Below are positions 1-64,000 of a stretch of DNA of 64,000 nt, piece by piece. The translations under genes and the position numbers were made by a program. Location: the NCBI GenBank assembly GCA_964482035.1, contig CAYZVC010000001.1, forward strand, positions 337,874 to 401,873, given 5' to 3'. Numbering within the stretch: the stretch's first letter is position 1; every line of letters starts with the position of its first letter. This stretch comes from an uncultured Candidatus Peribacteria bacterium (GTDB lineage Bacteria > Patescibacteriota > Gracilibacteria > BD1-5 > UBA2023). The notes under the pieces are model-generated. The model was not told the DNA's origin. It worked only from the letters and a program-made list of their open reading frames with translations, and made no database searches.

Positions 1-123
1 ACGATTATCGTTGAGGATTCTCCTCATGGCATTCAGGCCGCAGAGGCTTCCAACGCAAACGTAATTAAGGTTAAGGACGCGACCGAAGTCCATTGGTGAA
101 TCTTCGATACGTTCGATTTCTAA
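1..123 (+). CDS. HAD-superfamily hydrolase, C-terminal end (truncated by window start)
   Basis: Frame 1 reads TIIVEDSPHGIQAAEASNANVIKVKDATEVHW-[TGA 97-99]-IFDTFDF, then TAA 121-123. The EDSxxGIxAAxxA..VI.V stretch resembles HAD motif IV. Confidence 0.45.
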
Positions 124-136
124 CTCTGATACGAAC

Positions 137-880
137 ATGCTCAACATCGTAATACCTATGGCGGGGGCCGGAAGTCGATTCGCCCAAGCGGGATACACGT
201 TTCCGAAACCGCTCATCGAAGTGAAGAATAAGCCCATGATACAGGTCGTCGTCGACAATCTTCGTCCTGCGGATTTTCTTGGCGATTATAAATTCACGTT
301 CATCGTCCAGAAGGGGCACTATGACAAATACGCCCTCAAGCACCTTCTTGGACTCATAGCCCCAAACTGCAATATTGTCATCACGGATTGACTGACGAAA
401 GGCGCGGCTTGTACCGTTTTGCTCGCGAGCGAACACATAGATAATGATGACGATCTCCTCCTCGCGAATTCGGATCAGTTTTTGGAAGGTGGGATTTCTG
501 ATTTTTTGGAATCTTGTAAAAATCAGAAACATGACGCATCGATCATGACTTTTAAGGCTACCCACCCCAAATGGTCTTTCGCAAGATTATGATCCGATTG
601 ATTCGTAGAAGAAGTCGCGGAAAAAAAGCCAATTAGCGATAATGCGACAGTTGGCCTCTACTACTTTAAAAAGGGCTCGGATTTCGTAAGGGGCGCCCAG
701 AACATGATACGAAAGAACATCGTAGTTAACGATGAATTTTACGTATGTCCCGTATACAATGAATTGATATTAGATGACAAGAGGGTTTCCATCTTCGATA
801 TCTGAAACAGGATGCACGGAATCGGTACTCCCGAAGATTTGAACCGCTTTCTAGACAGCAAAGCATCTGAGACGATCTAA
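137..880 (+). CDS. sugar-phosphate nucleotidyltransferase
   Basis: ATG 137. N-terminus MLNIVIPMAGAGSRF (G-rich NTP loop), later HGIGTPEDL. Checked codon by codon: four in-frame TGA (389, 590, 599, 803), TAA at 878. Confidence 0.8.
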
Positions 881-903
881 TATTTGGCAATTGAGAACGG
901 GTT

Positions 904-1224
904 ATGGAAAGACATAGGCTTTCGGATTATAAAAAAGGTTGGTTCGTCTGAGATTTCGATCCCGTCATCATTAAAACGGGTGATTTCGAGGTCTCTATAA
1001 AGCATTATGACTCAGGTGCCGTAGAAATGCCCCATTACCATGCCATAGCCACCGAAATAACGGCAATTACGTCCTGACGTTTCGTTATGAACGGTGAAAA
1101 CCTCGGTAAAGACGACATCATCGTCCTGAGTCCTGGGGAAGTCGCGAACTTTCAATGCCTTGAGAGCGGCACTACCGTGGTCGTAAAGACGCCATCGATT
1201 CCCGAAGACAAATACTTAGTCTAA
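904..1224 (+). CDS. small cupin-fold protein
   Basis: ATG 904 to TAA 1222, 106 codons, 2 in-frame TGA. Contains KKGWFV-[TGA]-DFDP and ...HYHAIATEITAITS-[TGA]-RFVMNGE..., typical of small cupins found in polysaccharide clusters. Confidence 0.55.
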
Positions 1225-1229
1225 TTGCC

Positions 1230-2081
1230 ATGAGGATTCTGACACACCGCTGATTGGAGCCTGGGAATCCTGATTTTCATTTTTCAGAGAGCAGTTTCGA
1301 GGCTTTTGAAAACCAGCTTTCGAGATGATTTTGATTGGAGTTCGACGTTAATTTCTCGAAAGACAATATTCCGTTCGCTTTTCACGATTCTTCCTTCAAA
1401 AGAATTTCGAATTGAACCAACGATGGCTCCTTCTCGGAATTGAACTTCTCTGAGATTTTGAGTGTCTGATTGCCATGAGACTGTCATTTTGCAAAAATCG
1501 AAGACGTCTTCGCGCTCATACTGAAATTCTCGAATAAAGATGAATTTTCAGCTTTGCACGTTAAGGCGAAGTTCCAATCGCCGATATTCCTCGATAAGAT
1601 TTTAGAAATCTTCGATTCGTATGAAGGGGGCGTAGACAGAGTTATCCTTTTCGATTTGCTTCCGGAAGCCGCACAATATCTGAAGCAGAACAATCCGAAT
1701 ATACGCACCTTCGCTTCTGTTGCCCATCCATTCGACGTAAAGCGTTTTTCGCATTGCGTGGGTTGAACCCTCTTGCCCTTCGACGATTTTTTAAATATGC
1801 GATCGGTATATGATTGAGCCTGGTTGGATGAGTGGGACAGGTTGGATGAGAACTGACTCACGAAAGCCCTCTATGTTCGCGATTCGTTCCTGTCATTGCG
1901 TAGTCGGTGATTTCAGATAGCCGTAGTCTCTCCTGAATTACATGCTTCGTCCCCATGATTATACGGTGGGGAATCGCATCAGGATTGCGTAGATCACCTT
2001 TCTCTTGAAAAGAGAATTCTTGAAATTTCTATGCTTTCGCCTGACTTCTTTTGTACAGACTATCCTTCCTTTTTGGCTTAA
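1230..2081 (+). CDS. glycerophosphodiester phosphodiesterase (GDPD) family protein
   Basis: MRILTHR-[TGA]-LEPGNPDFHFSESSFEAFENQL..FGLEFDVNFSKDNIPFAFHD matches the GDPD HRG...EN(S/T)..AF...E.D hallmark. Checked codon by codon: 11 in-frame TGA, TAA at 2079. Confidence 0.75.
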
Positions 2082-2085
2082 CGAT

Positions 2086-3453
2086 ATGAAAAATATTCTT
2101 GATGTTTCTAGCAAACAGGCAATCTTTGGTGAGGGTGTGAAATTTTTTTCTCAGGAAATTAATCAACTGTATCGTCCTTGCTGACAGTGAGTCTGTATTC
2201 CTGATTCTTATGATATCGTATATTCGAATAACAATCTTACAGGGCATAAGTTTTATCAAATATTGCTCAAAGAATGGTTCTACCTTCCGAAAAAGAATGG
2301 TTTCCTTGTAATTGATTACCATCCTTCTGAACTCATATCTCCTATTATGGTTGAGGATGAGTTTTGGCTTCAGTGGGGATGATCATACGAAATTCTAAAG
2401 CATTGTATCATTTCGGACGAGGATGCTTTTTCCGATTCCGCTAAAATCGAGAATCAACTTATCCTCGATGTAAAGACATATGAATCGAATCAGGATTTAT
2501 GATTCGATGATTTTGATAATCCTACTCTGAGGAGTAAGAAATGGCGAATAGTAATAAGGAAAACCGTAGAGTGCATGAAGGAAAATGACTCCATGGATAA
2601 GTGGACCTTCTGAATTATTACAAACGGTACTCGAGGTCAGTGGATGAGTGATTTGATATCCTCTATCAGGGCTTTAAATGTTCCAAATTATGAGATACTT
2701 GTTTGTTGAAATTATCAAGCAAACCCTAGAGATGGTGATTTGACTTACATCCCATTCAACAAAAGGTCGAATAAATGATGGATAACTAAAAAAAAGAATC
2801 TTATTTTAAATTCATCAAAATATGAAAATATCGTCATAGTTCACGATCGATATGTATTTGATTCTCAATGGTATTTATGAATGATAAAGTGGGGGCCGAA
2901 TTTCGAACTATTGACCACTGAGCAATATTTTCAGAATACTGACATAAGATTTTTAGATCGTGTAGAAATACTGAATTCAACGAAAACTGACCCTCTTTCT
3001 CTTAGGAGTTGAAACCTCTGCTTTTTGATTGCGGAAATGGACAATAAAGATTTTTACCATTCAACCTGTCTTGGGGGCGGAGTTTTAATTCTGAAGAAAT
3101 GAATCTGAATCAAACTTTGCGAAACGCTTTTTTGGAATAATTATGAGGATAACGAGTACTCGGCTTCCTCAACTCAACGGGGGGCTTATCCCAGGATAAA
3201 CCCATATTCTAAATTATATACCCGCCAATACGAGAAGGTCTTAGAAATCTCGAAACAACAAGCAGATTACATACTTGAATATAATCCGGTTAATTTTTGT
3301 TATAACTATAAGGCATTAACAACCCGGGCTTTTAAAAAAAGGATATTCTCATATTTTCTACTCATATGAAAGAATTACTTTTGACGAGTGATTCTTTCTC
3401 GATTACGCAATTTTTATCATAAATCTGGTTTTGCGAAAAAATGGAGCATTTAA
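2086..3453 (+). CDS. two-domain protein with GT-A-like glycosyltransferase core (putative)
   Basis: Continuous frame from ATG 2086 to TAA 3451 (455 codons, about 13 TGA). Core reads KWTF-G-IITNGTRGQW...YEILVC-G-NY...IVIVHDRYVF. GC is lower than the flanks by eye. Overlaps the next gene by 13 nt. Confidence 0.5.
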
Positions 3454-4571
3454 AGGGGGCGAAAATTGCAATAATCTGCGATCCTATAGATCTTGATCAA
3501 AAAACGGGAATTCCCGTATATTGTGAGAGAATGGTTCGGGAATTTATGAAAGATAAGAATAACAGTTACGTTTTCTTTCATATGAAAGAAAACTCCATTT
3601 TCAATGGTTTCGAGAATGTTATTTTCCCGGCCTGAAACAGTTTCTGATTATGGAATGCCTTATTGAGCGTCTGGAGGAAATTCTTTCTCATTCCGCGAGA
3701 ATGTCGTCGTCGTGGAATCGATGTCGTGCATGATTTGAACATGATAGGAATCCATACTTTTGATTTCTTTCGAAAATACAAAGCAGTGGTTACGATTTTC
3801 GATTTAACGCCGCTTATATTTCGTCAATATCACTGATGGTTGAATGTTTTGTGATTCAATCTTTTCGTCAAGCGTTCGGCGAAAAAAGCGGATAGAGTAA
3901 TTGCCATTTCCGAAGCAACCAAGAATGACCTGATTCGTTTCTTTGGAATACATCCAGATAAAATTTCCGTCACACTTTTGTGAACGGATATACTAGAGAG
4001 GGGAGTGGCTGATACCCCGAACTTTTCTGCCCCGTTTATTTTGAGCGTCTGAACCCTGGAACCTAGAAAAAATCTGAGAAATTTGGTCAAGGCGTTTGTA
4101 AAGGCAAAAGAGCTTTGAATTTGAAAAGACGTCAAGCTTGTTCTGACTGGGAAGTTTTGATGGAAGCTGGAATCCTTTTTGAATGAATTGTCCCTCCACT
4201 CCTCTTTACGTAATGAAATCATCATCACTGGTTTCTTGACAGATGAGCAGCTTGTCCATCTGTATAAAACTTGCACCGTCTTTGTATACCCGTCGTTTTA
4301 CGAAGGTTTCTGACTTCCAGTACTTGAGGCCATGACAGTTGGTGCGCCGGTCATCACCTCAAATGTTTCAAGCATACCGGAAGTTGCATGAAATGCATGT
4401 CTGCTTTGTGATCCAAATGACGTGAATTCCATCGCTAATTCAATTAGCTCAGTCTTGCATGATCCGCAAATCAGAAAAAGATTATCTTGCCTTGGCATTG
4501 AACAATCTAAAAAGTTCTCATGGCAGCGGTGCGCTAGTGAAACACTGGTCGTGTATGAATGATTACAATAA
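3441..4571 (+). CDS. GT4-family glycosyltransferase
   Basis: Fragments joined across about 12 TGA. Contains FVYPSFYEGF-[TGA 4311]-LPVLEAMTVGAPVITSNVSSIPEVA, the EGFG/EAM GT4 signature. Ends VVYE-[TGA]-LQ then TAA 4569. Confidence 0.85.
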
Positions 4572-4582
4572 GGATTATGAAT

Positions 4583-4613
4583 AAAAAAATCCCCCAATTT
4601 GGGGGATTTTTTT
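4583..4613. terminator. bidirectional rho-independent terminator
   Basis: aaaaaaatccccc-aattt-gggggattttttt between convergent genes (GT4 on +, manC on -). Confidence 0.7.
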
Positions 4614-4624
4614 ATTCGGGCAAT

Positions 4625-6004
4625 TTATTTCCTCTTGTAATCGTCTTCGAACCTCACGATGTCGTCTTCTTCGAGGTAGTCGCCGATTTGGCTCTCGATG
4701 AGGTGTGCGGTTACGCGGCCCGGGTTTTCCAATCGGTGCATGGTGCCGGCCGGAATGAACGTACTTTCGCCCTTATTGAGGATGCGTTCTTCGGTACCGA
4801 CGGTCACCTTCGCGGTACCGGATACCACTACCCAATGTTCGCTACGGTGGTAGTGCATCTGGGCGGAGAGGCGTTTGCCGGGGAGAACGGTGAGGCGCTT
4901 CGACTTGAAGCCGACGCCTTCGTCGATAATCGAATAGCTGCCCCACGGACGGTAGACCGTAAGATGGGTTTCGGTAACGGAAGGGAGGCGTTCCTTCAGG
5001 ATTTTTACGGCTTCCTGAACCTTCTGGGACGAACCTTTCTTAGAGATGAGAAGGGCGTCTTTGGTGTCTACGGCGATAAGGTTTTCGCAATCGATGAAGA
5101 CTACCGGCTTTTTGGGAACGTCGGAATACGCGTAGTTGTTCTTCGCCGAAATCTCGATCATGTCGGTCGACGGGATTTCGCGGGCGTATTTTTCGAGCGC
5201 GTCGAAGCTTCAGAGGTCGGTCCAACCGATATCGGCTGAAAGAACGCTGACGTTCTTGGTCTTTTCGAGAAGCCCGTAGTCGATGGAGAGGTCGGGGAGG
5301 TTGTCGAAAATCTCTTCGACGGTATCGTATTTCGCGAAGGTGGCGAAATAGGCCGAATCGGCTTTTTCGAGTTCGTTATCGAACACTTCCTTCGAGAAGA
5401 GGAAGATACCGGCGTTCCAAAGGTAGCCTTCTTTGACGTACTTCTCGGCGGTTTCGAGATCGGGTTTTTCTTTGAATTCCGAAACGGCTACCGCAGCGGT
5501 TTCACACGGGCCGGTTGGGTGGATGTATCCGTATCCGGTGTTTGGGTGATCGGGGAGGATGCCAAACGTCACGAGCGATTTCTTAGCCGTGGGTACCGCA
5601 TTGAAAACCGCTTCTTTGAAGGCGCGCGCGTTTTCGATGGCATGGTCGGAAGGAAGCACCAGCGCAAGGTCGTGGTCGTCATCAAGCGAGCGGATGGCGA
5701 GCATGATTGCCGCGAGGGTGTTTTTTGCCTTGGGTTCGACGATGAGGTTCTTTTCGGTAACCGGTATCCCGATTTCTTCACCCTGCGTGATGCAGTGGAA
5801 TTTGTAGTTTTCGTTCGTAACGATGCGGAAATCCGTCTTAGAACCGGAAATTTCGATAGCCCGTTTGAGGGTATTTTGAAAGAGGGAAGTGCCACCGAAT
5901 TCTGCAATCTTGATGAACTGTTTGGGGTAGAGCTTGCGCGAAAGCGGCCAAAGACGCGTACCAGAGCCTCAGGCGAGGATTATGGGGAATACGGAGTCGT
6001 GCAT
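4625..6004 (-). CDS. manC: mannose-1-phosphate guanylyltransferase / mannose-6-phosphate isomerase
   Basis: MHDSVFPIILA-[TGA 5969-5971]-GSGTRLWPLSRK at the N-terminus. GWTDL-[TGA]-SFDAL in the middle. C-terminal cupin HYHRSEHWVVVSGTA. 1380 nt, in frame with track ORFs 4625 and 5210. Confidence 0.9.
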
Positions 6005-6074
6005 TTTGTTGAATTTGAAAATACCGGTGAATTCTATCGAAAAAGAGGGGAATACCAACCCCTCTTTCCGCTTC

Positions 6075-6428
6075 TTAAACAAATGGAACGATTCTGTATT
6101 TCCCGCTTTCTAAATCTGCAAATATTCCGTCCAGTTTCCCGTTGAATTCATCGACGGAATATTTTGAAACGTTCCATCACTGTTTTGTTTCCTTTTTTGC
6201 GATATGGAACGGTAGATAGCTCCCGTTGCGTTCCTGAAACAAGACTACGAATCGGATTCTTCCTGAAAACAGGTACCCTTTAAGGATTTTCCTGCCTCGG
6301 ATTTCTCAGATGTTCTTAAGATTGTCGAGGCCTTTTGAGTGTTTAGTAATCTCGATTCGCATATCGTCAATAGATACCGATTTGATTTTAACCACAGATT
6401 TCTCGAACGTCTCAGTTATTAGAATCAT
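6075..6428 (-). CDS. RelE/HigB-superfamily-like toxin candidate
   Basis: 117 codons. LKGYLFSGRIRFVVLFQERNGSYLPFHIAKKETKQ resembles the Gp49/HigB-type core. Its ATG overlaps the end of the upstream antitoxin-like gene. Confidence 0.45.
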
Positions 6429-6661
6429 AAGTCATCCAATTTACTGGATATCTTCTCCAGACGAGAAGTAACGGATGGATCTTTGAGCAGCTCGTCGAAA
6501 ATGCGTTCGTCAAGATCGAATCTTATGACCGAGGGTTCCGAAGATACCTTTTCCATGAAATAGCGTATGAGGACGGCTCATTCGAGTCACCGTTCTTTTG
6601 TCTTGGAAAGAAACTCTTGTTTGAGCTTCTTGTCCACCCGTATGGAAAGCGTAGTATCCAT
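6419..6661 (-). CDS. ribbon-helix-helix/DinJ-like antitoxin candidate
   Basis: 80 codons. MDTTLSIRVDKKLKQEFLSKTKERG... is a typical RHH antitoxin N-terminus. Ends DDL-[TGA]-F then TAA. Confidence 0.5.
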
Positions 6662-6667
6662 ATATGT

Positions 6668-6684
6668 GTATTACATTGTAATAC
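6668..6684. promoter_or_regulatory. perfect 8-bp inverted repeat (candidate operator)
   Basis: gtattaca-t-tgtaatac lies 7 nt upstream of the antitoxin ATG (6661). Confidence 0.4.
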
Positions 6685-6689
6685 ATAAG

Positions 6690-6716
6690 AGTATACAGAT
6701 GTGCGAGAGGAGTCAA
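6690..6716 (-). promoter_or_regulatory. candidate sigma70-type promoter of the TA pair
   Basis: On the minus strand: TTGACT, 15-nt spacer, TATACT, located just upstream of the palindrome. Confidence 0.3.
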
Positions 6717-6718
6717 AG

Positions 6719-6748
6719 AAAAAAAGGGGGAGGATGCCCCCCTTTTTT
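6719..6748. terminator. rho-independent terminator after ahcY
   Basis: aaaaaggggg-aggatgc-ccccctttttt hairpin flanked by an A-run and a T-run. Confidence 0.6.
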
Positions 6749-6768
6749 CGCTTCTTTAACGAAATTTC

Positions 6769-8157
6769 CTAATAACGGTAGTGCTCCGGTTTGAACGGAC
6801 CTTTTTTTTCAACGCCGATGTATTTCGCCTGTTCGTCGGAGAGTTCTGTGAGGTTCACTCCGATACGTTTGAGATGAAGTCGTGCAACCTTTTCATCTAA
6901 GTGCTTCGGTAGGCGGTAAACACCTACTGGATATTCGCCCTTGTTTTGGAAAAGTTCGATTTGTGCGAGAGTTTGGTTCGTGAACGAATTCGACATGACG
7001 AAGGACGGATGTCCGGTCGCGCATCCGAGGTTTACCAAACGGCCTTCCGCGAGCATGATGATTTTGTTTCCGCTCGGTAGTTCGATGTGGTCCACTTGTG
7101 GCTTGATGTTGTCCCAAACGTATTTGCGCATGCTCGCGACGTCGATTTCGGAATCGAAGTGCCCGATATTGCAAACGATAGCTTCGTGACGCATCTTGAC
7201 CATGTGGTCGTGCGTGATAATGTCCTTGTTTCCGGTTGCGGTAACGAAAATATCGGCCTTATCGCAGACGTCTTCCATCTTGACGATGCGGTATCCTTCC
7301 ATTGCAGCTTGTAGTGCGCAAATGGGGTCGATTTCCGTAATCCAAACCGTCGACCCGAATGCGCGGAGCGCTTGGGCGCAACCTTTCCCGACGTCCCCGT
7401 ATCCGCAAACGACGGAGATTTTTCCTGCGATCATGACGTCAGTAGCACGTTTGATGCCGTCGATAATGGATTCGCGGCAGCCGTAGAGGTTGTCGAATTT
7501 CGATTTCGTTACGCTGTCGTTCACATTAATGGCTGGGAAGGGGAGACGGCCATTTTCGAACATCTGGTAGAGTCGGTGGACTCCAGTGGTAGTTTCTTCC
7601 GTAACGCCGCGAATGTTCTTCTTAATGGCGCTATACCAGGTAGGGTTCTTTGCTAATTGCTTGCGAATGCTCGCGAACAACCATTTCTCTTCTTCACAGG
7701 TAGGGTTGTCGAGAATGGACGAATCCTTTTCCGCCTCGCTTCCGAGGATGACCAAAAGGGTGGCGTCGCCGCCGTCGTCGAGAATCATGTTGGGGGTTCC
7801 ACCGTCGTGCCAGTCGAGAATTCTATGCGTGTAATCCCAGTATTCTTCGAGCGTTTCGCCCTTGCTTGCGAAAACGGGGATTCCGGCGGCTGCGATAGCC
7901 GCTGCGGCATGGTCTTGCGTCGAAAAGATATTGCAGCTCGCCCAGCGGATGTCGGCTCAGAGATCTCGGAGGGTTTCGATAAGGACCGCGGTTTGTATGG
8001 TCATGTGGAGCGATCCCGCAATACGCGCGCCCTGTAACGGTTTACTGTCCCCATATTCTTCGCGCAAGGCCATGAGCCCCGGCATTTCCGTTTCCGCGAT
8101 TTCGATTTCCTTGCGCCCGAATTCAGCCAAACCGATATCGGCAATTTTGTAGTCCAT
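6769..8157 (-). CDS. ahcY: adenosylhomocysteinase
   Basis: [36 protein letters not shown]...TLRDL-[TGA 7957-7959][30 protein letters not shown]...; track ORFs 6769 and 7957 are in frame. Confidence 0.95.
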
Positions 8158-8203
8158 TTTTTAGAGATTGGATGTATGTATAGGATTTTACGTAAATACG
8201 ACG

Positions 8204-9142
8204 TTAAGAAAAGAAGCTTTCTCAAAATTCGCGCATTCCGATTTCATTTATTACATTCGTGTCGAAGGTATGGTTCTGTCATCAGAAATGCCGGATTTTA
8301 ATCCCGCCGAGAATACTTCAAAGCCGGCAAGATTTTTCGATGTTCCAGCCTTCCGACAGTCAGAACAATAGTCATCATCTGTAGGCGTCTCAGCATCCCG
8401 TCGCGTCTACGATCGACTCTGAGAACGTAGCGGGGACGTGCGTAGTTTCGCCGTTTTCGAATATCTTGGATCAGTTTTCACCGAGGGTGACGATTCCGAT
8501 TTTTCCGAAGGCATTTGTTTTTGAGTCGAGGGCCTCGCCCGTTATCTGGAGGAATCAATTCGCCTCATATTCGTTCATGATGGTTATATCCGCGGATACG
8601 ACCATGTCCGTCAGTTCGCTCGCGTCGAACAGCCCCATGGCCTGACCAGGATCGAAAATAGTGAAGGCTCAGTCCGAGAGACATTCCTTAACCCTTCTCA
8701 TCATCCCATTTTTCGAATCGGGCGAAACGATAGCATGGGAATATCTTTGCTTTGCGGTCGGTATCTCTCAGGAAAACGACATCGCTCCTGGGTGGAACGC
8801 GGTAATCTGTCTACCGATCTCGTCCCCGATTATGAAGCCATGTGCACTGAACGAATCGGGAAAAGTCTTTATGAGCTTCGTCCCGATTCAAAGCGATTCA
8901 AGCCTTTTTACGTAGGGATCCGCGTCTTGTCATACCGATGCGACGATATCCGGATTCTTGCCGAGCAGGGCGAGGTTGTATGCGATATTCCCTGCCGTTC
9001 AACCGTATTCGCGACGTATTTTGGGAGCGAAGAGGGAAAGATTGAAGCTGTCGAGAGCGTCTGGAAGTATCTGGCTCTTGAAAGTTCAGGTGGTGCCTAC
9101 GATCGTATCGAAGGCTACGGAGCCGGAGATGAGTATGGACAT
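8204..9142 (-). CDS. PfkB-family carbohydrate/adenosine kinase
   Basis: 312 codons joined across 16 TGA. REYG-G-TAGNIAYNLALLG and DATGC-[TGA]-DAYR-[TGA][TGA]-LLFG (DTxGAGD signature). Lies 46 nt upstream of ahcY on the same strand. Confidence 0.8.
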
Positions 9143-9475
9143 GACGTTCGAGCGGTTTGTTCGGTATTGCGGTCATATTTCAAACGGCAAGAACTCTAAC
9201 GTATTTGCCCGCTTTTGGAAGCCTTTTTTTCTTCGAATTTTCCTTGCCCTTAACCTTAGTGCGAGTTAGTCTCTCAAAAAGAAACGAGCCTTTATTTTCC
9301 GTGTTGTATGTATACAATGAGTGTGTATTATTTGTATCATTTCCTTGATATGCGCTCTGAGCAATGCATTTCGGTAACCGAACTCCGCCGCAAGACGGGG
9401 GCTTTCGTCGGAAAAGGCTCTTTGCCGGAAAGGTTCGTTTTTGTCTGAAGCAAACCTACGAACGTGATTTTGAGC

Positions 9476-9631
9476 ATGGAGAGGTACGAGACCCTTCAAA
9501 AAATCGAGGAATCGTTCTACGAACAGCAACTGGACGTTCGTTTCGTTCCTCTTGATTCGATGTCGCTTTCTGAGACTCGCGAGTATACCGAAGCTTCCAA
9601 ACGTGATGATTCCGATTTCGTAGAATTGTAA
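9476..9631 (+). CDS. small acidic protein, antitoxin candidate
   Basis: 51 codons, MERYETLQKIEESFYEQQLDVRFVPLDSMSLSETREY.... TAA lies 1 nt before the ATG of the toxin-like gene. Confidence 0.3.
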   Translation: MERYETLQKIEESFYEQQLDVRFVPLDSMSLSETREYTEASKRDDSDFVEL

Positions 9632-9632
9632 A

Positions 9633-9887
9633 ATGCCGATTCGAATCGAACGCGTTCTCATCGACCAAAAGCTCGTTTCCTACCTGTCGGAAAGGCGGCT
9701 TCTTTCTCAATATAAAAAAGCGAAGGATTTCCTTTTGGCAGGCAATTTCACAAACGCCTCGCTTAAAATCCGGGAGCCAAAGGATAAGGGAATTTGGTAC
9801 TTTCGCATCAATAAACAATATCGTGCACACGCAACCATCAAAGACTGAGTGTTGCGCATCCACGATATTGACGACCATTCTGTGTAG
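9633..9887 (+). CDS. RelE/ParE-superfamily-like small protein
   Basis: ...GIWYFRINKQYRAHATIKD-[TGA]-VLRIHDIDDHSV then TAG 9885. Resembles the RelE/ParE C-terminal pattern (fRi..yR.....d..l.i..i..H). Confidence 0.45.
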
Positions 9888-9926
9888 CGGGCACTGTTCT
9901 AGTCGGACATCCTGAATGGGGGTATA

Positions 9927-10742
9927 TTAATCTTGCGAAACCCTGATGACCACGGGATATCAATCGTCCGATATCCCTATTTCAGCAGTCCTGTTTTTAT
10001 AACGTAGACTGTCTCCTACGGTGAGACGGGGAAGGAATCCCGATCCCGTCTTCATGCCGTTTACGTACACCTCCCCTGATTCCACAATCTTTTTCAACTT
10101 CCTCATGTTCGCATTCTTGTCTATGGCCGCCAATACTGAAAAATACGATAATCAAGGGTAGAGCCTGCCTTCGATGTCCATCGTTATTACGGCCTGTTTT
10201 TCCAGTATTTCACGAGCCATGTGAGCTCAAGTCGTTTGTTGAAGCGGTGCGTAATTGAGAAACGAATACGAATCCGACCTCCGTCATATGAGAACGATTT
10301 CCTTCGCAGGGACATCTTCTTTCGCAGCTTTGACGAGTATGGAATTCAGTTTTACTCGGTAACTACTGACGTAGTCCGTCCAGGCGTTCCCGCTCGGTCC
10401 GGGCATTTCGATCTTGAGAATCTTTCCTTCAGGTATCCGAAATCGTTCGATAAGATCGCGTGCCGTATCGATTTCACGAGCAGTGCCAGTTGGCTCATAA
10501 CAAAAGAGGAATTCGTTGTTCGCGTCGAGACAGCGCGAGATTTTCTGCCGAACGTCTTCAGTAAGTTCCTCGAACGTTTGGAATTTCAATTCGTTTCGTT
10601 CAAGCTCGTCCATTCTCGTTTGTTCGGTTTCGCTGACTCAATAGACGAGTTTTTTCGTTACGAGACTTTCAAATTCCGCATGCGCTGCGTTTTTGACGTG
10701 CGGATAATGTCGAATGAGCGATATTTTGTCCGCGTAGGTCAT
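9927..10742 (-). CDS. hypothetical protein with C-terminal S4-like RNA-binding module
   Basis: ATG 10742 to TAA 9927 (271 aa, 5 TGA), in frame with track ORF 10284. The tail KKIVESGEVYVNGMKTGSGFLPRLTVGDSLRY looks S4-like. Confidence 0.5.
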
Positions 10743-10743
10743 G

Positions 10744-47247: not shown

Positions 47248-47259
47248 GTTTCGAAAAGG

Positions 47260-47286
47260 AAAAAGGCCCTTTCGTGGGAAAGGGCC
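47260..47286 (-). terminator. hairpin plus T-run between lemA and paralog A
   Basis: ggccctttc-gtgg-gaaagggcc, followed by TTTTT on the minus strand. Confidence 0.45.
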
Positions 47287-47294
47287 GGTTTCTA

Positions 47295-47858: not shown

Positions 47859-47917
47859 TCTTGAAAGGATTGGGATAAGTGGGGTGAATATACCACTGAG
47901 GGTAGGTTATGACAAAT

Positions 47918-49144: not shown

Positions 49145-49339
49145 GCTTCCACGGGTCATTCGCGACGCTTCGCGACGGATATTGCGCATATACGGTAGCA
49201 TATTGCCGTCTTTCGGGCAATTTGGAAGATGGCGTTATCGTTACGGCTTCGTGCGTGGAGACCGGACGACGAATTGACATTTGCGAATATACAATTATTG
49301 TCTATTCCAACACAAACAAATTCGAATTGGGAGTCATGA

Positions 49340-50218: not shown

Positions 50219-50278
50219 GAGTCGAACCTACCCCGAAGGATTTGGAGTCCTTAATTCTAGCCGATAAACTATGGGGCT
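50204..50278 (-). tRNA. trnW: tRNA-Trp (anticodon CCA), CCA end encoded
   Basis: Minus strand: AGCCCCA-TA-GTTT-ATCGGCTA-GAAT-T-AAGGA-CTCCAAA-TCCTT-CGGG-GTAGG-TTCGACT-CCTAC-TGGGGCT-G-CCA. Clean acceptor, anticodon and T arms. Confidence 0.85.
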
Positions 50279-52403: not shown

Positions 52404-55400
52404 TTACTTGTTGGTTGCAGGCTTCCGTACGTTTTTCTTCTTCGCGGACTTTTTCGCCTCCGCCGCTTTCTTGGAGAGTTGCTCCGATACGTACGACAGA
52501 ACGGCCTTTTCTCCACCCTTCGTTTTGGATTTTGCGAGCTTCGCCACGTTTGCTGCGGCCTTGGAGAGCGCGTTGGATTTCGCTTCCGGAGTTTTGCCTT
52601 CGAGATTGAGCGATTTGACGATGCGGTCCACTACGAGACGGTCGATTTTCGGTTTCACGCCTTGCGGTACGTTTTTAGATGTCGCGTTTATTCCCAATTT
52701 CGCGAGCGTGCCGGTCTTGGCGATTTCGTTCGCCGCCGCATAAGGATCTTCGGACGGTTTCACGTTCTTCTTGCTCGGGACGTTTTTCTTGTTCGCGTTC
52801 GTGCTTTGCGAAGTTCAGCTTCCGGAAACGCTTCCGGTCTTGGTCGTGGGGGTTTGCGCTACCGGTGCGGAGTATCCGCCCCCGCCCCCTCCTCCGCCGC
52901 CGGACGAACTGCGGACCACGGCGTTTTTCGAAGTGACGGTGAACGTTGCGGTCACTCCGCCGACGTTGAGCGTCGCCGAAGCGGTACCCAGCGCGTTCGC
53001 GGACGAGACGACCTTTACGCGTACGCTGTCGCCGGAAGTCACGGTGGACGTTCCGGTTACGAAGGCGGCGTTATTCACCGAGTAACTTCCGCCGCTGACG
53101 GTCACGGTCGCTGGGGCATTGAATCCGGTAAGGGTCACCGGATCGGAGATGACTTCTGACGTGAATTCCGCGCCGCTCTTCGGAGCGAAAGAATACGCGT
53201 CCGGAACCGAATCGCTCGGTGCCGCGAATCCGTAGTACGAGAAGTGGTCGGCTTCGAATTGGCATACCGATGCCGAAACCACGCATTCAGCTACGTGCTG
53301 GAAGTTCGTTCCGTCGTTGGAATGGTAGACTCGGAGGGTCTTACCATTGAGGGCGGCACCCACCTCGACCTTCACGGTTACGGTCTTTCCCGAGAAGGCG
53401 AGCCTCGCGGTATCGTTACCGATGGCGAATACCGAACCGGTCTGCGAGTATCCCGTATCGCTGACGCTGTCCGATACGGAGGCCGTTTTCGGTGCGGAGA
53501 ATTTTCCATCCCAGCCGTTGGTTCCGATGACGAGTCCGTCGAGGGGGAATTTCGCGGAATGCTTTCCGTCTTCGCTGTATACGGTCACCGATCCGCTCGA
53601 ATTGCCGAATTCGGCGCCGGTGGACGTGGAATCCTGGAACCATACGGAACCCGTTGCGGTAATGTCGTTTCCGTAATCGGACGAGGTCGCGGTCTTAGGC
53701 GTTTTTACCGCGATGGCGGAGCTCTTCGCCCCGTCTTTCCCGTTCACGGTTCCGTACGCTTTGAAATAGTACTGCGTATCGGCGGAGAGTCCGGATACGG
53801 TAACGGAATGCGAAGTTCCGCTCGACGATTCGGAAGCGAGCGAGGAGAGGGAATTCGGATCGGTTCCGTACGCGACGGATCCGAGAGAATCGACATCGGT
53901 GGCGAAGGTCGCTACGAATCCCGTACCGGTAACCTGCGATGACGAAACTCCAGAAACCGCGGGCGTTCTCGTTACGGTGACGCTCACGGTCGTTACGTGG
54001 CCTACGGAGTCGGTGGCGGACGCTTCGAACGTGGAATCTCCCGAGGGGAGCGGCAGGGTTTTCGACCAGTTTCCGTTCGTGAGAGGCAAGGCTTGTCCTC
54101 AGACGGAGAACGTCGCCAACCCTCCGGTGTCGGAGACGCTTCCCGTAAGGACGATTAGCGAGCCTTCCGCCGATGCGCCGTTCGTATGCGAAGATATCGA
54201 AAGCGCGGGGGAGGCCGTGTCCACGGTAATTACGGCGTTCGCAGAAGTGGATACGCCCGCGAGGTCGGTAAAAGTGGCGTACGCGGTCTTCGATCCGTCT
54301 CCGGCGGAAAGGTCGAGGGCGACGTCCGCGCTCGATCCTCCGATCAGGGTTCCGGTATGCGTGCCCACTACGTCGCCGGTGATTTCGTAATCTACGGTTT
54401 TACTTGCTGAGACCCGAACTACGACCGAGTTCGAGCCGACGATCGCTCCGCTTAGGAATGCGACGCTTCCGTCCGCCGGTACGACGGATTTCCCTACGGT
54501 TCCGAGTGCGGTCGCTCCGACGTTTCCGACGTAGTCGGTGACGTATGCGGAATAGCTTATCATTCCATCGTCGAACGAAGAAAGGTCGAAAGTCGACGAG
54601 AATCGGCCGTCGGATCCGACGACGAGGGTTCCGCTCGTGGAATGCGCGAAGTTCCGATCGTGGATTTCGTAGTTTACCGAATTTCCGATTTCACCGCTTC
54701 CGGAAAGTCCGGAAAGTACGGTGGAACCAACCGTTCAGGTTCCGATCACGGCGTCGCCGTTCAATGTGAAATCCGTCGGCGTGTCGGGGGCGACGGTGTC
54801 CACGTACGCGTTCACGGAGTCGGATGCGGAAGAGTTCCCCGCTACGTCGTACGCGATGACGCGGAAGAAGTGGGCTCCTTCTCCGAGGGTCAGCGTAACG
54901 CCGGTGGAGCTCGTGATGCCGGAATGGGTAAGCAGCGCAAAATCGAAATCGTCCGAAACTTCGTACCGGTACGGCTCTGGCGGGAGTCAGGAACCCGTAT
55001 CGGAAGCGGAGGTCCATTCGAACGCCACGTCGGCGATCTTAGAATTCGTTATGAAAGGCGAAGCGATCGGCTTCACGGGTGCTACGGAGTCGACGAAGAA
55101 GGTCTTTTCGTAGATGGGGGATACGAAATTCCGCGCGTTTTTATATTGGAAGCGGATGACGTTCGTTCCATCCGGCGCGGAAACGAGGGGAATGGATACG
55201 GTTCCGGAAGCGGTAGCCCTAGTAATCGTATCGGCGTTCACGTTCTGAAACAGGTACGTTCCTTGCCCGTCGAGCGAAACGATCGCCGCGAGGCCGTTTT
55301 TCGAGCGTACGTCCCCGCTCCCGGTCGTCGACGTAACGTCGACGCCTCCCGTCATCGTTTCTATGTGCACGGCGTCGATTCCCACCTGGTCGAGGCCTCA

Positions 55401-57617
55401 CGACAGGGTGTTGTCCTTCGCGTAGGTCCATGTGAATTCGTGCTGTCCGTTCGTAACGGAAGCAGTTACCGGCATCCAAGCGTTTTCTCAGGACAATTCG
55501 TTTTTAAGGTTTCCGTCGACGTAGAGCTTAAGTTTGTCATACGTTTTTTCGGTCGACGTCCTCGCGAAGAACGAGAGGTATCCGGTGTCGGTGGTTGCCG
55601 AATAAGTGACGCTTGCGGATTCCTTATCTGCGATGGCCGGCGACTGGAGGGATTTGTTCCCGATCGCGCCGGTGGAGCTGGTGAGCGTCCAGATTCCGGA
55701 ACCGGACGTCGTCCAGCCTGCCGGAATCGAAACGTCGTTTTCGAAACTTTCGTCCGAAGTCACGAAAGCCGGGTAAGCGATTTCTTCGTTCACTCCAACC
55801 GCGTCCCATGCGTTCGCTACGGATGCCGCATAAGCCGGATTTACGGCGTTCGCCGCGTCGATCCAAGCTTGGCGTGCGGTTTGGTAGGTGGCTTCGCTCG
55901 TAACGAAATTCGTATTGGCTTCGTACGCTATGCGCGCCGCGTTCTGCAACCCGATTCCGTCGACGCTGTACAAAAGACCGTCGTTGACGCCTTTGCCGCC
56001 TTCTGCGAGAAGGTAGTAGAAGAAGTTCTGCACGCCGCTGTTCTGGTGGACGCCCCCGTTATCGCCGGTTCCCGAGTACCAATAGGTTCCCTTGTATTTG
56101 GTGGGCTGCTCGCCGCCGGTTCCGACCGTTACGGTATTCGCGGGGTCGCGCATGTCACGGAGCGACGAGTATCCGATACCCGGAAGACGGAGGATGTCTT
56201 CGCCGATGAGCCAGTCTCCCTTGCCGGGCGCGGCGTTCGGGTACGATGCCCGATCGTCGACCTGAGTGAGGAGCTCTACGGTGCTTCCCATGATGTCCGA
56301 GAACGATTCGTTGAGCGCTCCGGCTTCGTTGAGATATACGAGGTTCGAGGTGTTTTCCGTCCACGCATGGGAGAACTCGTGCGCTACGACGTCGAGAGTT
56401 GCGAGCGGAGCGAGATTGGTGCCGTCCCCGTCCCCGAAATAGAAGCCGTCTCCAGGATTCCAGAACGCGTTATTGTAATTGTTTCCGTAGTGGACTGTGA
56501 ATCCTACCAAGGTCTGCCCGGTCGCGCTGAACGCGATATTCTGGACCGTAAAACCGAGAGGCTTGAAGAATTCGAGGGTTTTCTGAAGATTGTACGCGGC
56601 AGAAACCTCCGTCGGATCGGACGATCCCCATGAAGGCGTGCTTCTGAAAGCCACGCTGTCCGCGTCGGTATACGTTCCGCTGTTCGTGGAGAAGTTATAT
56701 ACGTATACGAGGCGGTCGACCGGGTCCCACATATAGGTATTTCCGTCTCCGGAATAGACCGTACCGGAAAACGATACCTGGGCGCCGCCTTCGCCGGGAA
56801 GGAGGTCGCCCGTAATATCCACCGGAGAGTTGTGCGCAACCGTTTCGTACGAACGGATCGTTTTTCCACTCTTCGCGTCTATTACGTAGCGGATTTTGGA
56901 GGGGCCGTTCTTCGTCGTTTCGAAGGACGCGTCGTACTGCCATACGAGGTTCTGACCCGATGCTTCGGCCAAAATGGCGAGTTCGGGTTTCGAAACCTTG
57001 AATTTCGGCTGCTTCCCGTACGCGGCGGTCGCGACTGCGGCGGCTTGCTTGGAAGTTACGATCGGGGTCGTTCCTACGGTCACGTCCGCGACGTAATCGC
57101 CGTCGATCTGGTAGAGCTCGCCGTCTTTGCTTACGTGGCCGACGACGTCGGATCCGATGACCGGGAGGCCGGAGTAGGATTGCTTGAGGCGGACGTGTTT
57201 TTCACCCGTGAGTTTCGATACGGTTTCCGATTCTGTTACGAGCTTGGCCTTTTTCGCTCAGTTTTTCTGGGCGTAGAGAGTGGAGAGGTCGTCAAAAACC
57301 GCCTGCACGTCGGAAGCGACGTTCTTGGTAGCTTTGGATTTGAGCCCCGTAATTTGCTTCGGCTTCGCGGCCGCGTCGTTCCAACGGATTTCCGTTCCCG
57401 AATATTTGGCGGCCTTTCCGCTCTTTTCGAGGGCGGATTTCTGCGCCTTGAGCCGGGTTTTAAGTTCGGTAGGCGCTTTGGCCATCCCCGCTTGCGACGC
57501 CGTCTTCTGGACGGGTTTCTGCGAAGTTTCGGCGTATGTTGCCGGAACTCCTACGGAATTGGCGAAAACCGCGAGCGAAGCGGCGGTCGCGACGATTTTT
57601 TTGAACAGCGGGGACAT
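52404..57617 (-). CDS. giant secreted M4 (thermolysin-family) metalloprotease with Ig-like/FN3-like array and Lys/Ala-rich tail
   Basis: Six track fragments (57258, 55488, 54987, 54099, 52815, 52404) are all in one frame and joined by 7 TGA; gaps were checked. Signal peptide MSPLFKKIVATAASLAVFANS. VVAHEFSHAW (HExxH at 56367-56381) and GALNESFSD. 1737 aa. Confidence 0.85.
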
Positions 57618-57717: not shown

Positions 57718-59157
57718 ATGAAATACGAAATCGTCATGGGTCTCGAGACCCACGTCCGCGTCAAATCCGAAACCAAAATGTTCTGTTCCTGCCGCAATGC
57801 GGTGGCGCTCGCCGAAGAGCCGAACGAGAACGTCTGCGGCGTCTGCATGGGCTTCCCGGGCATGCTCCCGGTCTTGAACGACAAAATCGTCGATTTGGCC
57901 GTGCGCGCTTCCAACGCCATGCGTATGACGGTGAACGAGGTTTCGATCTTCGACCGCAAGTCGTATTTCTACCCGGATCTTCCGACCGGTTTCCAGATCA
58001 CCCAGCTTTTCCATCCCATCGCCGAACACGGCGAGGTGAAAACGATGGTCGAGTGAGTAGAAAAGACCTTCCGCATCGGTCGCATGCACATCGAGAATGA
58101 CGCGGGCAAGCTGGTCCATGCTGGTTCGTCGACCCTTCTCGACTACAATCGTGCCGGTTCTCCGCTCATGGAAATCGTCACCGAGCCCGACTTCCGCTCG
58201 AAGGCCGACGTCATCGCCTATCTCGAAGAGCTCCAGAAGATCATGCGCTGGTGCGGCGCTTCCGACGCCGACATGGAAAAGGGGCAGCTCCGTTGCGACG
58301 TCAACATCTCCATCCGCCTTGCGGGAACCGACGTCCTCAACAACCGCGTGGAACTCAAGAACCTCAACTCGTTCTCCGCTATCGGCCGTGCCATCGACAA
58401 CGAATACGCCCGCCAAATCGAAATGTACGAAGCCGGCGTCCGCGTCGCGCAGGAAACCCGCGGTTGGGACGACGAACACGGCGAATCCCGACCGCAGCGT
58501 TCCAAAGAAGACGCCATGGATTACCGGTATTTCCCTGAACCGGACCTTCCGCCGCTCCACGTCTCGAAAGAATTCGTCGACGCCCGTCTCGTGCCGGAAC
58601 TCCCCATCGACCGTCGCCGAAAATACCTTGCCGATTATAAACTTCAGGAGGACGACGCGCGTATCCTTTCGAACGAACGTACGCTCTCGGACTATTACGA
58701 AGAACTCGTCGCACTCACCGGCGATGCCAAGAAATCGTGCTCGTACGTTACGACCGTCCTTTTCGCTATCGTTCAGGAACATAATTCCCGCGTCCGCTCC
58801 GAGGAATCCAAGTCGTTCCTCGCGGTTCCCGCCAAAGAACTCGCGCGCGTCATCGCCCTCGTGGCGAAGGATGAGCTTTCTTCTACCAACTCTAAGACGG
58901 TCGTGGAAGAACTCTTCGAAAACGGAGGTTCCACCGATGAAATCGTCGACCGCCTCGGTCTCCGCCAGGTTAACGATACCGGCGCCCTCGAAGCCGTGGT
59001 AGAACAGGTAGTTACCGAGTTCGCGGCACAGGTCGCCGAATACCAGGCCGGCAAGGTTCAGCTCTTCGGTTTTCTCGTCGGTTCGTGCATGAAGGCTTCG
59101 AAGGGGCAGGGGAACCCCAAGATGTTCACCGAAATGCTCAAGAAGCGCCTCGGCTAG
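57718..59157 (+). CDS. gatB: Asp/Glu-tRNA amidotransferase subunit B
   Basis: MKYEIVMGLETHVRV...CGVCMGFPGMLPVLN...MVE-[TGA]-VEKTFRIGRMHIENDAGK...; the two fragments are in frame. Confidence 0.95.
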
Positions 59158-59922: not shown

Positions 59923-59930
59923 TCGTCGAC

Positions 59931-60216: not shown

Positions 60217-60244
60217 TCTTGCGTGCGGACTGAGCCGAGCGCCT

Positions 60245-61018
60245 TTACGTCGTGGTGAGGATTTCGCAACCGTCTTCGGTGACGAGGATGGTATGTTCGA
60301 ACTGCGCACTGAGTTTGCCGTCGAAAGTCTTGACCGTCCAGCCGTCGGAAAGAAGCTTCGTCTTATGGGTTCCGGCGTTGATCATCGGTTCGATGGTGAA
60401 GACCATTCCGACTTCCATCTTCGATCCTGAGTCCTTGGGGGCCTTGTGCACGATGTACGGCTCTTCGTGGAAGTATACGCCCGTTCCGTGGCCGGTGTAG
60501 TCGCGTACGACGCCGTACCCGAGCTTTTCAGCGTAGTTGCCGATTGCGAATCCGATGTTTCCGAAACGGTTTCCGGGACGGACTTCGGAAATGCCGATTT
60601 CCAACGCTTTTTTCGTGGCGTCGACGAGCTTTTTCGATTCGTTCGAAACGTTGCCTACGAGGTACATCCGGGAGGTGTCGCCGAAGTACCCGTCGACGAT
60701 GGTAGTGACGTCGATGTTCACGATGTCACCCTCCTTGAGAACCGTTTTCGAATCGGGAATCCCATGGCAGACGACGTCGCCGATGGAGATGCAGGTGAAC
60801 TTGGGATATCCGTGGTAGCCGATGCAGGCGGAAATGCCGCCGTTCTTCAAAATGAACGCGTTGCAGATGTTGTCGAGCTCCTCGGTGTTGATACCCGGCT
60901 TCACGTATTGTCCGATCATGTCGAGCGTCGCGGCGGCGAGCCAGGAAGAGCGGCGGATGCCTTCGATCTGTTCCGGGGTCTTGATGATGATGCCGTTCTG
61001 GCGGTGTGCTTTTGACAT
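60245..61018 (-). CDS. map: type I methionine aminopeptidase
   Basis: IIIKTPEQIEGIRRS...GYHGYP...NIDVT...HGTG...TIEPM...EHT, the MetAP metal-ligand pattern. Start chosen at MSKAHRQNG. Confidence 0.9.
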   Translation of the reverse strand: MSKAHRQNGIIIKTPEQIEGIRRSSWLAAATLDMIGQYVKPGINTEELDNICNAFILKNGGISACIGYHGYPKFTCISIGDVVCHGIPDSKTVLKEGDIVNIDVTTIVDGYFGDTSRMYLVGNVSNESKKLVDATKKALEIGISEVRPGNRFGNIGFAIGNYAEKLGYGVVRDYTGHGTGVYFHEEPYIVHKAPKDSGSKMEVGMVFTIEPMINAGTHKTKLLSDGWTVKTFDGKLSAQFEHTILVTEDGCEILTTT

Positions 61019-61104
61019 GGTATTCGGGAAATGACGTGCGATTATATTCCGGGAACGGTCGAACGCAAATTGCAAAATCCCCGCCTCGGATTATTATCCG
61101 CGCC

Positions 61105-62844
61105 ATGCGACACCTGAACGTCAAAATACAGCGTTACGAATTGCCCGGATGAGACGTTCTCATACGGGACACTTCGCTCATCATCAACGACGACGACCGA
61201 ATCGCCGTCGTTTGAGGGAACGGCGCGGGCAAAACGACGTTCATGAAGGTCGTCACCGGAGAAAAGACCATGGCCGACGACGCGGGAGAGAAATTCCTCT
61301 GACGTTTCGAAGGCTCCGTTGACAATACCGGCTGACTTACGCTCGGCTACCTCGCGCAAATACACTTCGACCAAGAGGAAAAAACCGTCGGCGAAGAACT
61401 TCGAAACGCGTTCCCTTTGGTTCTTGAAGCCGAAAAGGAACTTACGGCGTCAGAAGCGGGATTGGGCGACGAGAACGGCGTGGAACGGTATAGCGAAGCC
61501 TTGGAGAGGTTCAAGGCCGTGGGCGGGTACGATTACGAACGCGAAATCGACCGAGTTTCCCGCGGTATCGGAATTTTCCATTTGCTCGGTTCGAAGCTCA
61601 AGGAAGTTTCGGGCGGACAGCGTACGAAGATCGCCCTCGCGAAAATCCTCCTCCTCAAGCCGGATTTTCTCCTTTTGGACGAACCGACGAATTTCATCGA
61701 CCTCAAGAGCGCCGAGTGGCTCGAAAAGTACCTTCAGGAAACCTGGAAAGGCGGCTACCTCATCATTTCGCACGACCGCGAATTCTTGGACGCCACTTGC
61801 ACCAAGGTCTACGACGTGGTGAAGGGCCGCCCCATCGCCGAATACGTGGGCAACTACTCCGACTACGTCACCGAAAAGCGCCGTCTCGAAGAAAAGCTCA
61901 TGGAAGAATACGAACGGCACCTCGAATTCATGAAGTCGGAAAAGGCGCTTATCAACCGTTTCCGCGCGGGTTCGAGAGCGGGCTTCGCAAAGAGTCGCGA
62001 AAAGATGCTCGAACGCGTTGACGAGCCTGAAAAGCCGTTCATTCCGCCGCGTCCGAAGTTCCGCTTCGAATTCTCGGAACGTCCGGGTGAGAAAATTCTC
62101 GAATTCAAAGAGGCGTTCATCGGTCGCAAGGAGCCGCTTTTCTTCATTAGTGAAGTCGTCGCGCGCGAAAAGAACCGTATCGGCGTCGTAGGGGAAAACG
62201 GGGTGGGGAAGTCGACCCTCATCAAGACCATCCTCTGAACCGTCCCGCTTCTCGACGGGTATTTCTCCAAGCACAAGGCGCTCGAAATCGCCTACTACTC
62301 GCAGATGCACGAGGAACTCGACATGGAAGCCACGGTGTTCGAGAACTTCGAACGCGCCGGATTCGCGTTCACCCGCGAGCGGCTCGCTTCCATCTTGGGC
62401 AACTACGGTTTCGAATATTCCGACGTCGACCGAAAGGCGAGGGATTTTTCGGGAGGACAGATTTCCAAAATACTCTTCTCGATGATCGGCCTCCGGCCTT
62501 CGAATTTCCTCGTGCTCGACGAGCCTACCAACCACCTCGACTACGACAGCCGCGAGGCGCTCGAAAAGACGCTTAAGGAATACCCGGGCACCATCCTTTT
62601 CATCTCGCACGACCGCTACTTCGTCAATAAAGTCTCCACCCACCTCTGGATCGTTGAAGACGGCGAATTGACGCTGTCATACGGGAATTATGCCGATTAC
62701 CGACTGAAGAAGGAGCGTGGCATTTCCTATGACGTTTCCCTCTGGAACGACGAGGGCGAGCTCGACATGGTGTTGGAAGAGAAGCTCTGAAAGGCCGAAG
62801 CCAAGCGCATTAAGGAAAAATTCTGAAGAAACCACCGCAAATAG
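61105..62844 (+). CDS. ABC-F family ATPase
   Basis: Walker A VV-[TGA 61213-61215]-GNGAGKTT and a second one, GENGVGKSTL. Signature motifs LSGGQ-like (VSGGQRTKI, FSGGQISKI). 7 TGA. TAG at 62842. Confidence 0.9.
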
Positions 62845-62845
62845 C

Positions 62846-63376
62846 ATGCCGAAACTCCCTTCCTGAAAACTCCATAAAATTTCCTACGACGACGGCGTAG
62901 GGGAGTCGGTTTCGACGAATTCGCCCACGCGCATGCGTTCTGACGTGAAGCGCTTGGCCGAATCGACGAAACTGCGTTTCGAATCGGCGTTTCCGGAAGG
63001 TTTCACCGCGACCGAATACGCTACGGTCCTCATACGGAAATGTGCGTCCCTGCCTGCAGAGGAAAGGAGTGCCGAAGTCGATTCGACCATCCGAAAGCTC
63101 CTCTCCCTCGAAAGGCTCTGCTTTTCGTTCAGCATGGCTGATCGCGCCGATTTTTTCCGTCAAGCGAAGAGGTCGTACGTTTCCCGTCTTCTCGAATCGG
63201 TCCTTCCGAAATTGCGGAACGCCGGTTACCGGAACGAGACTCTCGAAACCTGGTCGAAATGGATATATGCGAAAGGGTTTACGGACATTGGGGATTTCTG
63301 GTTCTGGAACGGCTGGAGAGACCGTTTTTTCGCGGAAGAACACGCCCCGTACGAAGATATCCCGTTGAATTTCTAG
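62846..63376 (+). CDS. hypothetical protein
   Basis: ATG 62846 is in frame with track ORF 62933-63376 through one TGA. Confidence 0.45.
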
Positions 63377-63377
63377 A

Positions 63378-64000
63378 GTGTCCAAGAACCGCCCACCGTT
63401 TTCGATTTACGAAACCGCCCCCAAACTTTCATTTTCCAGACAGTCGAAATGATCGGCGTTTTTAGTCGTGGGAGGCGTGGCGACCAAAGTCGAAAAGGTG
63501 GTGAGGGAATCCGATTTCGCGCTCTTTGCGGGATGTTATTGAATTATCGACAACCTTTCCCCCCATGCGGAAGCCGGCATCCCCGTAACTGCCGATATCG
63601 ACGAGGCCGCCGTTTGGGGCGGGATGATCGAAGAGCTTGCCCGACAGTGAGACGTTTTACCGAAGTCTCTCGAATCGGTAAGCGAAGACGTATCCAAGAT
63701 TCTTTGAAAACCCGTTTCCGTTTTTTCTGACCAGAAGATCGCGAAGATGGCGAAAGATGCCAAACGTCTCGCCGAAAGTGCGGAGAAGGAAGCGAAACGC
63801 GCGGAAAAACGACGTCAGAACAGACTTTCCAAATCTCCAGGGGAAACCGCGGATGCCGGAATCAAGAAGCCCATGGTCGTGGTCGTCATCGAAAAGCGCC
63901 TCGCGAAGTGCGAAGCCTCCATGAAAGTCTACCGGTACCTCGATCCGACCGTGAAAGAAGACGTGCCGGAGCCGACCGTGGCGGAAGTGGAAAAATTCAT
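63378..64000 (+). CDS. hypothetical protein, 3-prime truncated by window end
   Basis: Frame 0 is open from GTG 63378 to the window end if 4 TGA are read as Gly. The Lys/Glu-rich C-terminal part looks protein-like. Confidence 0.3.

Follow-up and report, generated by a model that had tools for sequence, protein, structure and literature searches.

It has been known since 2013 that Absconditabacteria and Gracilibacteria read UGA as glycine, and this reassignment is among those for which current tools screen. A different sense meaning of the same codon, tryptophan, is specified by NCBI translation table 4, the code of Mycoplasmatales, Hodgkinia, Zinderia and others. The glycine code, NCBI table 25, is documented for the Absconditabacteria and Gracilibacteria (GTDB class JAEDAM01, orders Absconditabacterales and BD1-5), and the G+C content (GC) reported for the table 25 clade ranges from 0.21 to 0.53 (PMC8629427; bioRxiv 10.64898/2026.05.24.727570). 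This analysis concerns the use of UGA in a 64,000-nucleotide stretch of DNA from an uncultured bacterium, hereafter the window. Here, UGA is a sense codon within intact conserved genes and very probably encodes glycine, UAA and UAG are the only stop codons, and the whole represents a known genetic code (table 25) in a clade already known for it.

Set against the described table 25 systems, the window is alike in its apparent reading of UGA as glycine, in stopping only at UAA and UAG, in its host from the Patescibacteria, which belong to the candidate phyla radiation (CPR), and in the fragmentation of its genes by standard-code calls. Nothing essential differs; the GC of the window, 52.8% overall and 54-58% in core genes, lies at the top of the reported 0.21-0.53 range, and accordingly UGA makes up only a minor part of the glycine codons of the core genes. 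With the Absconditabacterales variant in which CGA and CGG encode tryptophan (Shulgina and Eddy 2021, PMC8629427), the window has in common the UGA-glycine background and a related lineage; however, CGA and CGG behave here as arginine codons, and the extra reassignment is absent, since both interchange with arginine codons only and align to arginine. Table 4 resembles the code of the window in giving UGA a sense meaning and in leaving UAA or UAG to end genes, whereas the amino acid here would be glycine, not tryptophan, and the tRNA-Trp has the anticodon CCA.

The curated gene set comprises 45 genes (17,819 codons) and was built from a self-trained codon model, Pfam matches and public gene calls. 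It replaced a greedy calling of the longest open reading frames (ORFs) bounded by TAA and TAG, which in GC-rich DNA chose wrong-strand ORFs, for example over manC and glmS. In the curated genes, TGA occurs in frame 190 times, making up 14% of all glycine codons, and at least one such codon is present in 33 of the 45 genes; their glycine content is 7.4% when TGA is counted as glycine and 6.3% when it is not. With TGA taken as a sense codon, full-length Pfam matches are obtained for manC, ahcY, glmS, three GT4 glycosyltransferases, rluD, pheT, relA/spoT and recQ, as well as for tatD, nth, gatB, an ABC-F ATPase, a PfkB-family kinase, a DedA protein, a 1737-residue M4 peptidase protein and others. 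An initial annotation of the window, made from the sequence, had claimed that genes broken up under the standard code re-join in a single frame, and the full-length domain architectures that run across the TGAs, together with frame shifts never being seen, agree with this. At all eight sites for which that annotation had given coordinates, the triplet is indeed TGA, on the strand named, in frame and in exactly the peptide context quoted.

The assignment of UGA to glycine, which that annotation had also proposed, is upheld by three independent lines, namely solved structures, codon interchange in relatives and a Codetta-style tally, and on these sequence comparisons we hold it with high confidence. 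For the solved structures, each aligned TGA was scored by the residue that faces it in the best PDB match, which gave 40 positions in seven genes. TGA stands opposite glycine at 26 of the 40 and opposite tryptophan at none (binomial test with glycine at a background of 7.5%, p = 4.6e-20). All seven TGAs of glmS (12688-14541, minus strand; positions 14533, 14176, 13819, 13543, 13321, 13231 and 13090) align with glycines of E. coli GlmS, including that of the catalytic N-terminal Cys-Gly, and the relative L082 has GGC at 13321. The PfkB-family sugar/nucleoside kinase gene (8204-9142, minus strand) has 16 in-frame TGAs, of which 15 align with PDB 3b1r; glycine stands opposite 11, including those of the motif GCGDAFRGG, while the other four face H, L, A and P, with no W. 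The string DATGC-TGA-DAYR-TGA-TGA reported earlier for this kinase was located on the minus strand, its TGAs being at 8390, 8375 and 8372. Both TGAs of manC (5969 and 5210), the gene for a mannose-1-phosphate guanylyltransferase/isomerase (4625-6004, minus strand; full-length Pfam match), lie opposite glycine in PDB 2x5s, in the contexts LAGGSGERFWPLS and WSDLGNW, and the single aligned TGA of nth (endonuclease III; 33357-33983, plus strand), at 33702 in the helix-hairpin-helix motif, faces the glycine of LPGVG in PDB 1orn, LP-TGA-VGIKTA aligning with LPGVGRKTA.

The remaining three genes of the structural tally gave lower proportions. The ABC-F ATPase gene (61105-62844, plus strand) has seven TGAs, and two of the three that align with YbiT and YheS face glycine: one is at 61213 in the first Walker A motif, the other at 62236, a few residues past the second. 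In the GT4 glycosyltransferase gene at 3441-4571 (plus strand; 12 TGAs including 4311), three of nine aligned TGAs are opposite glycine, a proportion that rises at conserved motifs with more homologues; in an alignment of 120 members of the family, four TGA columns (amino acids 204, 240, 291 and 317) are 86-92% glycine. For rluD (21808-22875, plus strand), which carries a TGA at 22144 and a tandem TGA TGA at 22204-22209, none of three aligned positions is glycine, E. coli RluD having N, A and D; in L006 the three codons are GGA, GGG and GGA (the tandem being GGG GGA), and in L086 the codon at 22144 is GGA. The statement that the TGAs fall on invariant glycines thus goes too far, since it does not hold at every site named, as the three rluD positions show. 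The check that the initial annotation had proposed, alignment of glmS, manC, ahcY, nth and the ABC-F protein with orthologues, returned glycine opposite TGA (in two of three cases for ABC-F) and never tryptophan; in ahcY, which encodes S-adenosylhomocysteine hydrolase (6769-8157, minus strand; Pfam AdoHcyase over residues 2-461), the TGA at 7957 is opposite glycine in a standard-code homologue.

Codon interchange was examined in five assemblies with 87-93% nucleotide identity to the window and in the GTDB representative L006, whose LepA protein is 95% identical; the proteins of the relatives are 87-100% identical to those of the window. Codon alignments were restricted to the curated reading frames, the TGA-CGA and TGA-TGC pairs of a first all-ORF BLAST having proved spurious, with out-of-frame and antisense ORFs mixed in. 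Opposite a TGA of the window, the relatives have TGA 51 times, GGA 11 times, GGC nine times and GGG once, and nothing else; opposite a TGA of the relatives, the window has GGN 21 times and TCA once. Over both directions there are 42 TGA-GGN pairs, one TGA-TCA pair and no TGA-TGG pair, and each of the 120 alignments of TGG with the relatives keeps TGG, which is never paired with TGA. Since the TGAs of the window pair only with TGA or GGN, and TGG never pairs with TGA, TGA behaves as a fifth glycine codon. The same exchange is seen in individual genes: each of the three TGAs of relA/spoT (28172-30412, plus strand; 28526, 29168 and 30032) is GGC or GGA in at least one of the relatives L082-L086 and glycine in a standard-code homologue, and three of the five TGAs in the gene for a DedA/VTT membrane protein (30409-31020, minus strand) are GGA in relatives L082-L085, the other two being kept as TGA. 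The only TGA in pheT (25122-27563, plus strand), at 27543, lies six codons upstream of the TAA stop, is opposite glycine in a standard-code homologue and is kept as TGA in five relatives.

The sole pair of TGA with a non-glycine codon among the close relatives is found at codon 238 of the gene at 22911-24050 (plus strand), which is TCA (serine) in the window and TGA in L086, a difference of one base that would be a replacement between serine and glycine.

A small Codetta-style tally compared the codons of the window with 73 standard-code genomes. Of the 17 columns with TGA, 10 have glycine opposite, which is the level of true GGN codons (66-72%), and all other codons keep their standard meaning. 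Further reassignments, of CGA, CGG and AGG, were looked for in this tally and in the relatives, and none was seen: from small counts, CGA is opposite arginine in eight of 15 columns and the top residue for CGG is arginine, and in the relatives CGA and CGG exchange, again in small numbers, only with the arginine codons CGC, CGT, AGG and AGA, never with TGG.

Several observations can be set against the reading of UGA as glycine in a table 25 organism. About a third of the TGA positions are opposite residues other than glycine in distant homologues; this proportion does not count against glycine, because genuine GGN codons show the same one. No tRNA-Gly with anticodon UCA was found by ARAGORN and Rfam in the window, in 8-10 kb of flanking DNA on either side or in loci of 13 relatives. 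A structure-based DNA pattern for such a tRNA, applied to metagenome contigs, gave matches in at least 80 loci; the contig that holds the window is not among the loci listed, and the matches listed from GC-rich loci resemble chance occurrences in protein-coding DNA. A release factor gene was likewise not found in the 83 kb examined of that 532-kb contig (described below), too small a part of a genome to judge the absence of RF2. Moreover, while TAA closes 29 of the 45 curated genes and TAG the other 16, this count is partly circular, the ORFs having been defined as bounded by those two codons. With TAA or TAG as the stop, the C-termini of glmS, manC-type domains, lepA, ahcY and pheT agree with those of homologues.

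By analogy with what is established for table 25, UGA in this organism would be decoded by a dedicated tRNA-Gly whose anticodon is UCA, and RF2 would have been lost, such that UGA is no longer recognized as a stop. The identity elements expected of a UCA tRNA-Gly are G1:C72, C2:G71, G3:C70 and U73. As a minor fifth codon for glycine, UGA takes about 10% of the glycine codons in core genes rich in GC and 34-60% of those in accessory genes of low GC; the translation genes with the highest expression lack it. The window contains a single tRNA, a tRNA-Trp with the anticodon CCA (50204-50278, minus strand; ARAGORN; 57 bits in Rfam), whose 5-bp anticodon stem is normal and which carries G73-CCA. The initial annotation had rightly given its anticodon as CCA and had held it to argue against UGA as tryptophan, an argument that is weak alone, because organisms that read UGA as tryptophan often retain a CCA tRNA too.

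The competing accounts differ in what UGA would mean. Were UGA read as tryptophan, as under table 4 in the Mycoplasmatales and several insect endosymbionts, its clear use as a sense codon would be explained, and so, it would appear, would the W that the 11 database homologues nearest to the GT4 gene (42-95% identity) show at the TGA sites of the window. Those residues, however, are themselves TGA codons translated with table 4, without exception in P0001 (12 of 12) and P0006 (14 of 14), and tryptophan as inferred from the closest GT4 homologues was rejected on that DNA. The complete lack of tryptophan opposite the 40 structurally aligned TGAs, the lack of TGA-TGG interchange in the relatives beside a TGG that is always kept, and a CCA anticodon in the only tRNA-Trp seen also speak against table 4, to which we give next to no credence. 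Glycine is thus preferred over tryptophan as the meaning of the sense codon.

There is a slightly larger, yet still very small, chance that UGA is dual, encoding glycine in most contexts and terminating some genes in a context-dependent manner. In its favour, RF2 may be retained, and ORFs bounded by TAA and TAG would silently extend any gene that truly ended at TGA. Against this, the C-terminal agreement with homologues noted above places the ends of the five genes or domains concerned at TAA or TAG, the pheT TGA six codons before the stop faces glycine in a homologue, and no gene has a long stretch without a match at its C-terminus; a double role of UGA is also unreported for table 25 lineages (PMC8629427). 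Finally, under the standard code the 33 genes would look interrupted, as they might through pseudogene formation, assembly or sequencing errors, or selenocysteine insertion. Reading frames are never shifted, though, the 51 alignments of TGA with TGA are kept across independently assembled relatives, and essential genes (glmS, pheT and gatB) are among those affected. For selenocysteine in particular, 190 codons in 33 genes, opposite glycine rather than cysteine, are incompatible, and Rfam finds in the window neither a tRNA-Sec nor an element of the selenocysteine insertion sequence (SECIS) type. We regard this last set of explanations as extremely improbable, and UGA as a glycine codon is retained in what follows.

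The organism was placed with lepA (18415-20292, plus strand), a gene without TGA. Its matches include five metagenome-assembled genomes (MAGs) of Candidatus Gracilibacteria with 72-78% identity, a Patescibacteria MAG (JAUPLX010000008.1) with 95% and, as a further top LepA match, a MAG of 23% GC labelled Peribacteria; the TGA codons of the best LepA matches align with GGN in the window in 51 of 78 cases. By these best LepA matches, the DNA comes from an uncultured organism in the Gracilibacteria/Absconditabacteria group of the Patescibacteria (CPR), with a comparatively high GC of about 53-56%. The earlier guess that the DNA comes from the Gracilibacteria/SR1 part of the CPR agrees with this placement, the best matches being Candidatus Gracilibacteria MAGs with in-frame TGA at glycine positions.

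Peribacteria are regarded as standard-code organisms. In the MAG L007 (CAZFLS010000058.1, uncultured Candidatus Peribacteria, 22.6% GC), lepA contains 31 TGAs, 25 of them opposite GGN in the window, and to judge from this alignment that MAG also reads UGA as glycine and is probably mislabelled.

Several other genes of the window add detail to the use of the codon. A GDPD-like gene (1155-2081, plus strand; weak Pfam GDPD match, 26.6 bits) contains 12 TGAs, including that at 1251 in the context H-R-TGA, which would correspond to HRG, the known N-terminal motif of the GDPD family. In recQ (37697-39577, plus strand), the TGAs at 39185 and 39191 lie in the zinc-binding motif, and the Pfam domains DEAD, Helicase_C, RecQ_Zn_bind and RQC match across both; gatB (57718-59157, plus strand) has a TGA at 58054 and matches GatB_N and GatB_Yqey over their full length. 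The 1737-residue protein encoded at 52404-57617 (minus strand) has an N-terminal signal-like segment, an M4 peptidase domain and seven in-frame TGAs, and a homologue, 31% identical, adjoins lepA in L006. The trio DUF3137-LemA-DUF3137 (46003-49201, minus strand) has two DUF3137 paralogues, one with a single TGA and the other with eight. A putative ORF of 80 codons (6419-6661, minus strand), the N-terminus of which resembles a ribbon-helix-helix antitoxin, has three TGAs as its only glycine-type codons and no GGN. A small conserved protein (24617-24976, minus strand), for which the public calls give a weak T4SS_pilin Pfam match, has at codon 82 a glycine that is GGA in the window and TGA in three relatives.

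The consequences for annotation can be seen in public data. The window is part of contig Ga0310076_1089489 (532,537 bp) of JGI metagenome 3300028826, with 100% identity over 20.4 kb; loci of this contig are L081, L087 and L089, and its genes were called publicly under the standard code. As had been predicted of any standard-code annotation, these calls are badly wrong: glmS is in six pieces, relA in four, and rluD, manC, ahcY and gatB in two each, and the pheT call ends at residue 807. The same collection also contains relatives' proteins (among P0001-P0011; loci L090 and L091) that were translated with table 4 and have tryptophan at every TGA. Homology search, structure prediction and metabolic reconstruction with these public proteins therefore work from wrong sequences, standard-code calls shattering most of the genes and table 4 putting tryptophan for glycine. 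The value of the finding lies in the correction of annotation and not in new biology.

The share of glycine codons taken by TGA varies along the window. Positions 1-12453 form a low-GC stretch (35-49%, versus about 55% elsewhere) of glycan-biosynthesis genes and genes of unknown function, which extends about 1.8 kb upstream of the window (L087). Here TGA and GGN number 89 and 175 (TGA, 34% of glycine codons), versus 101 and 951 (9.6%) in the remainder, and in the genes at 1155-4571 the share of TGA reaches 48-60%. Across genes, it falls as GC rises (Spearman -0.70), and lepA, ndk, tsf, rpsB and map (18415-20292, 21250-21687, 50317-51105, 51467-52225 and 60245-61018) have no TGA at all, which suggests that core genes with high expression or high GC disfavour UGA for glycine. 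In the orthologous locus of a sister strain (L090), different genes lie upstream of the GT4-manC pair, and one of the near homologues of the GT4 gene sits on a contig of 24% GC (L091).

Between strains, the window provides a clean, small-scale illustration of UGA drifting freely to and from GGN. A more speculative thought, which we put forward tentatively and consider rather doubtful, is that low-GC, strain-variable glycan genes packed with UGA circulate within a gene pool of organisms that use UGA as a sense codon, as a natural 'genetic firewall'; the pool is read as closed because the nearest homologues of the genes of the low-GC island all come from such organisms. If this were true, a recoded codon would close the gene pool in which the accessory genes of a comparatively GC-rich (about 53-58%) code 25 lineage move.

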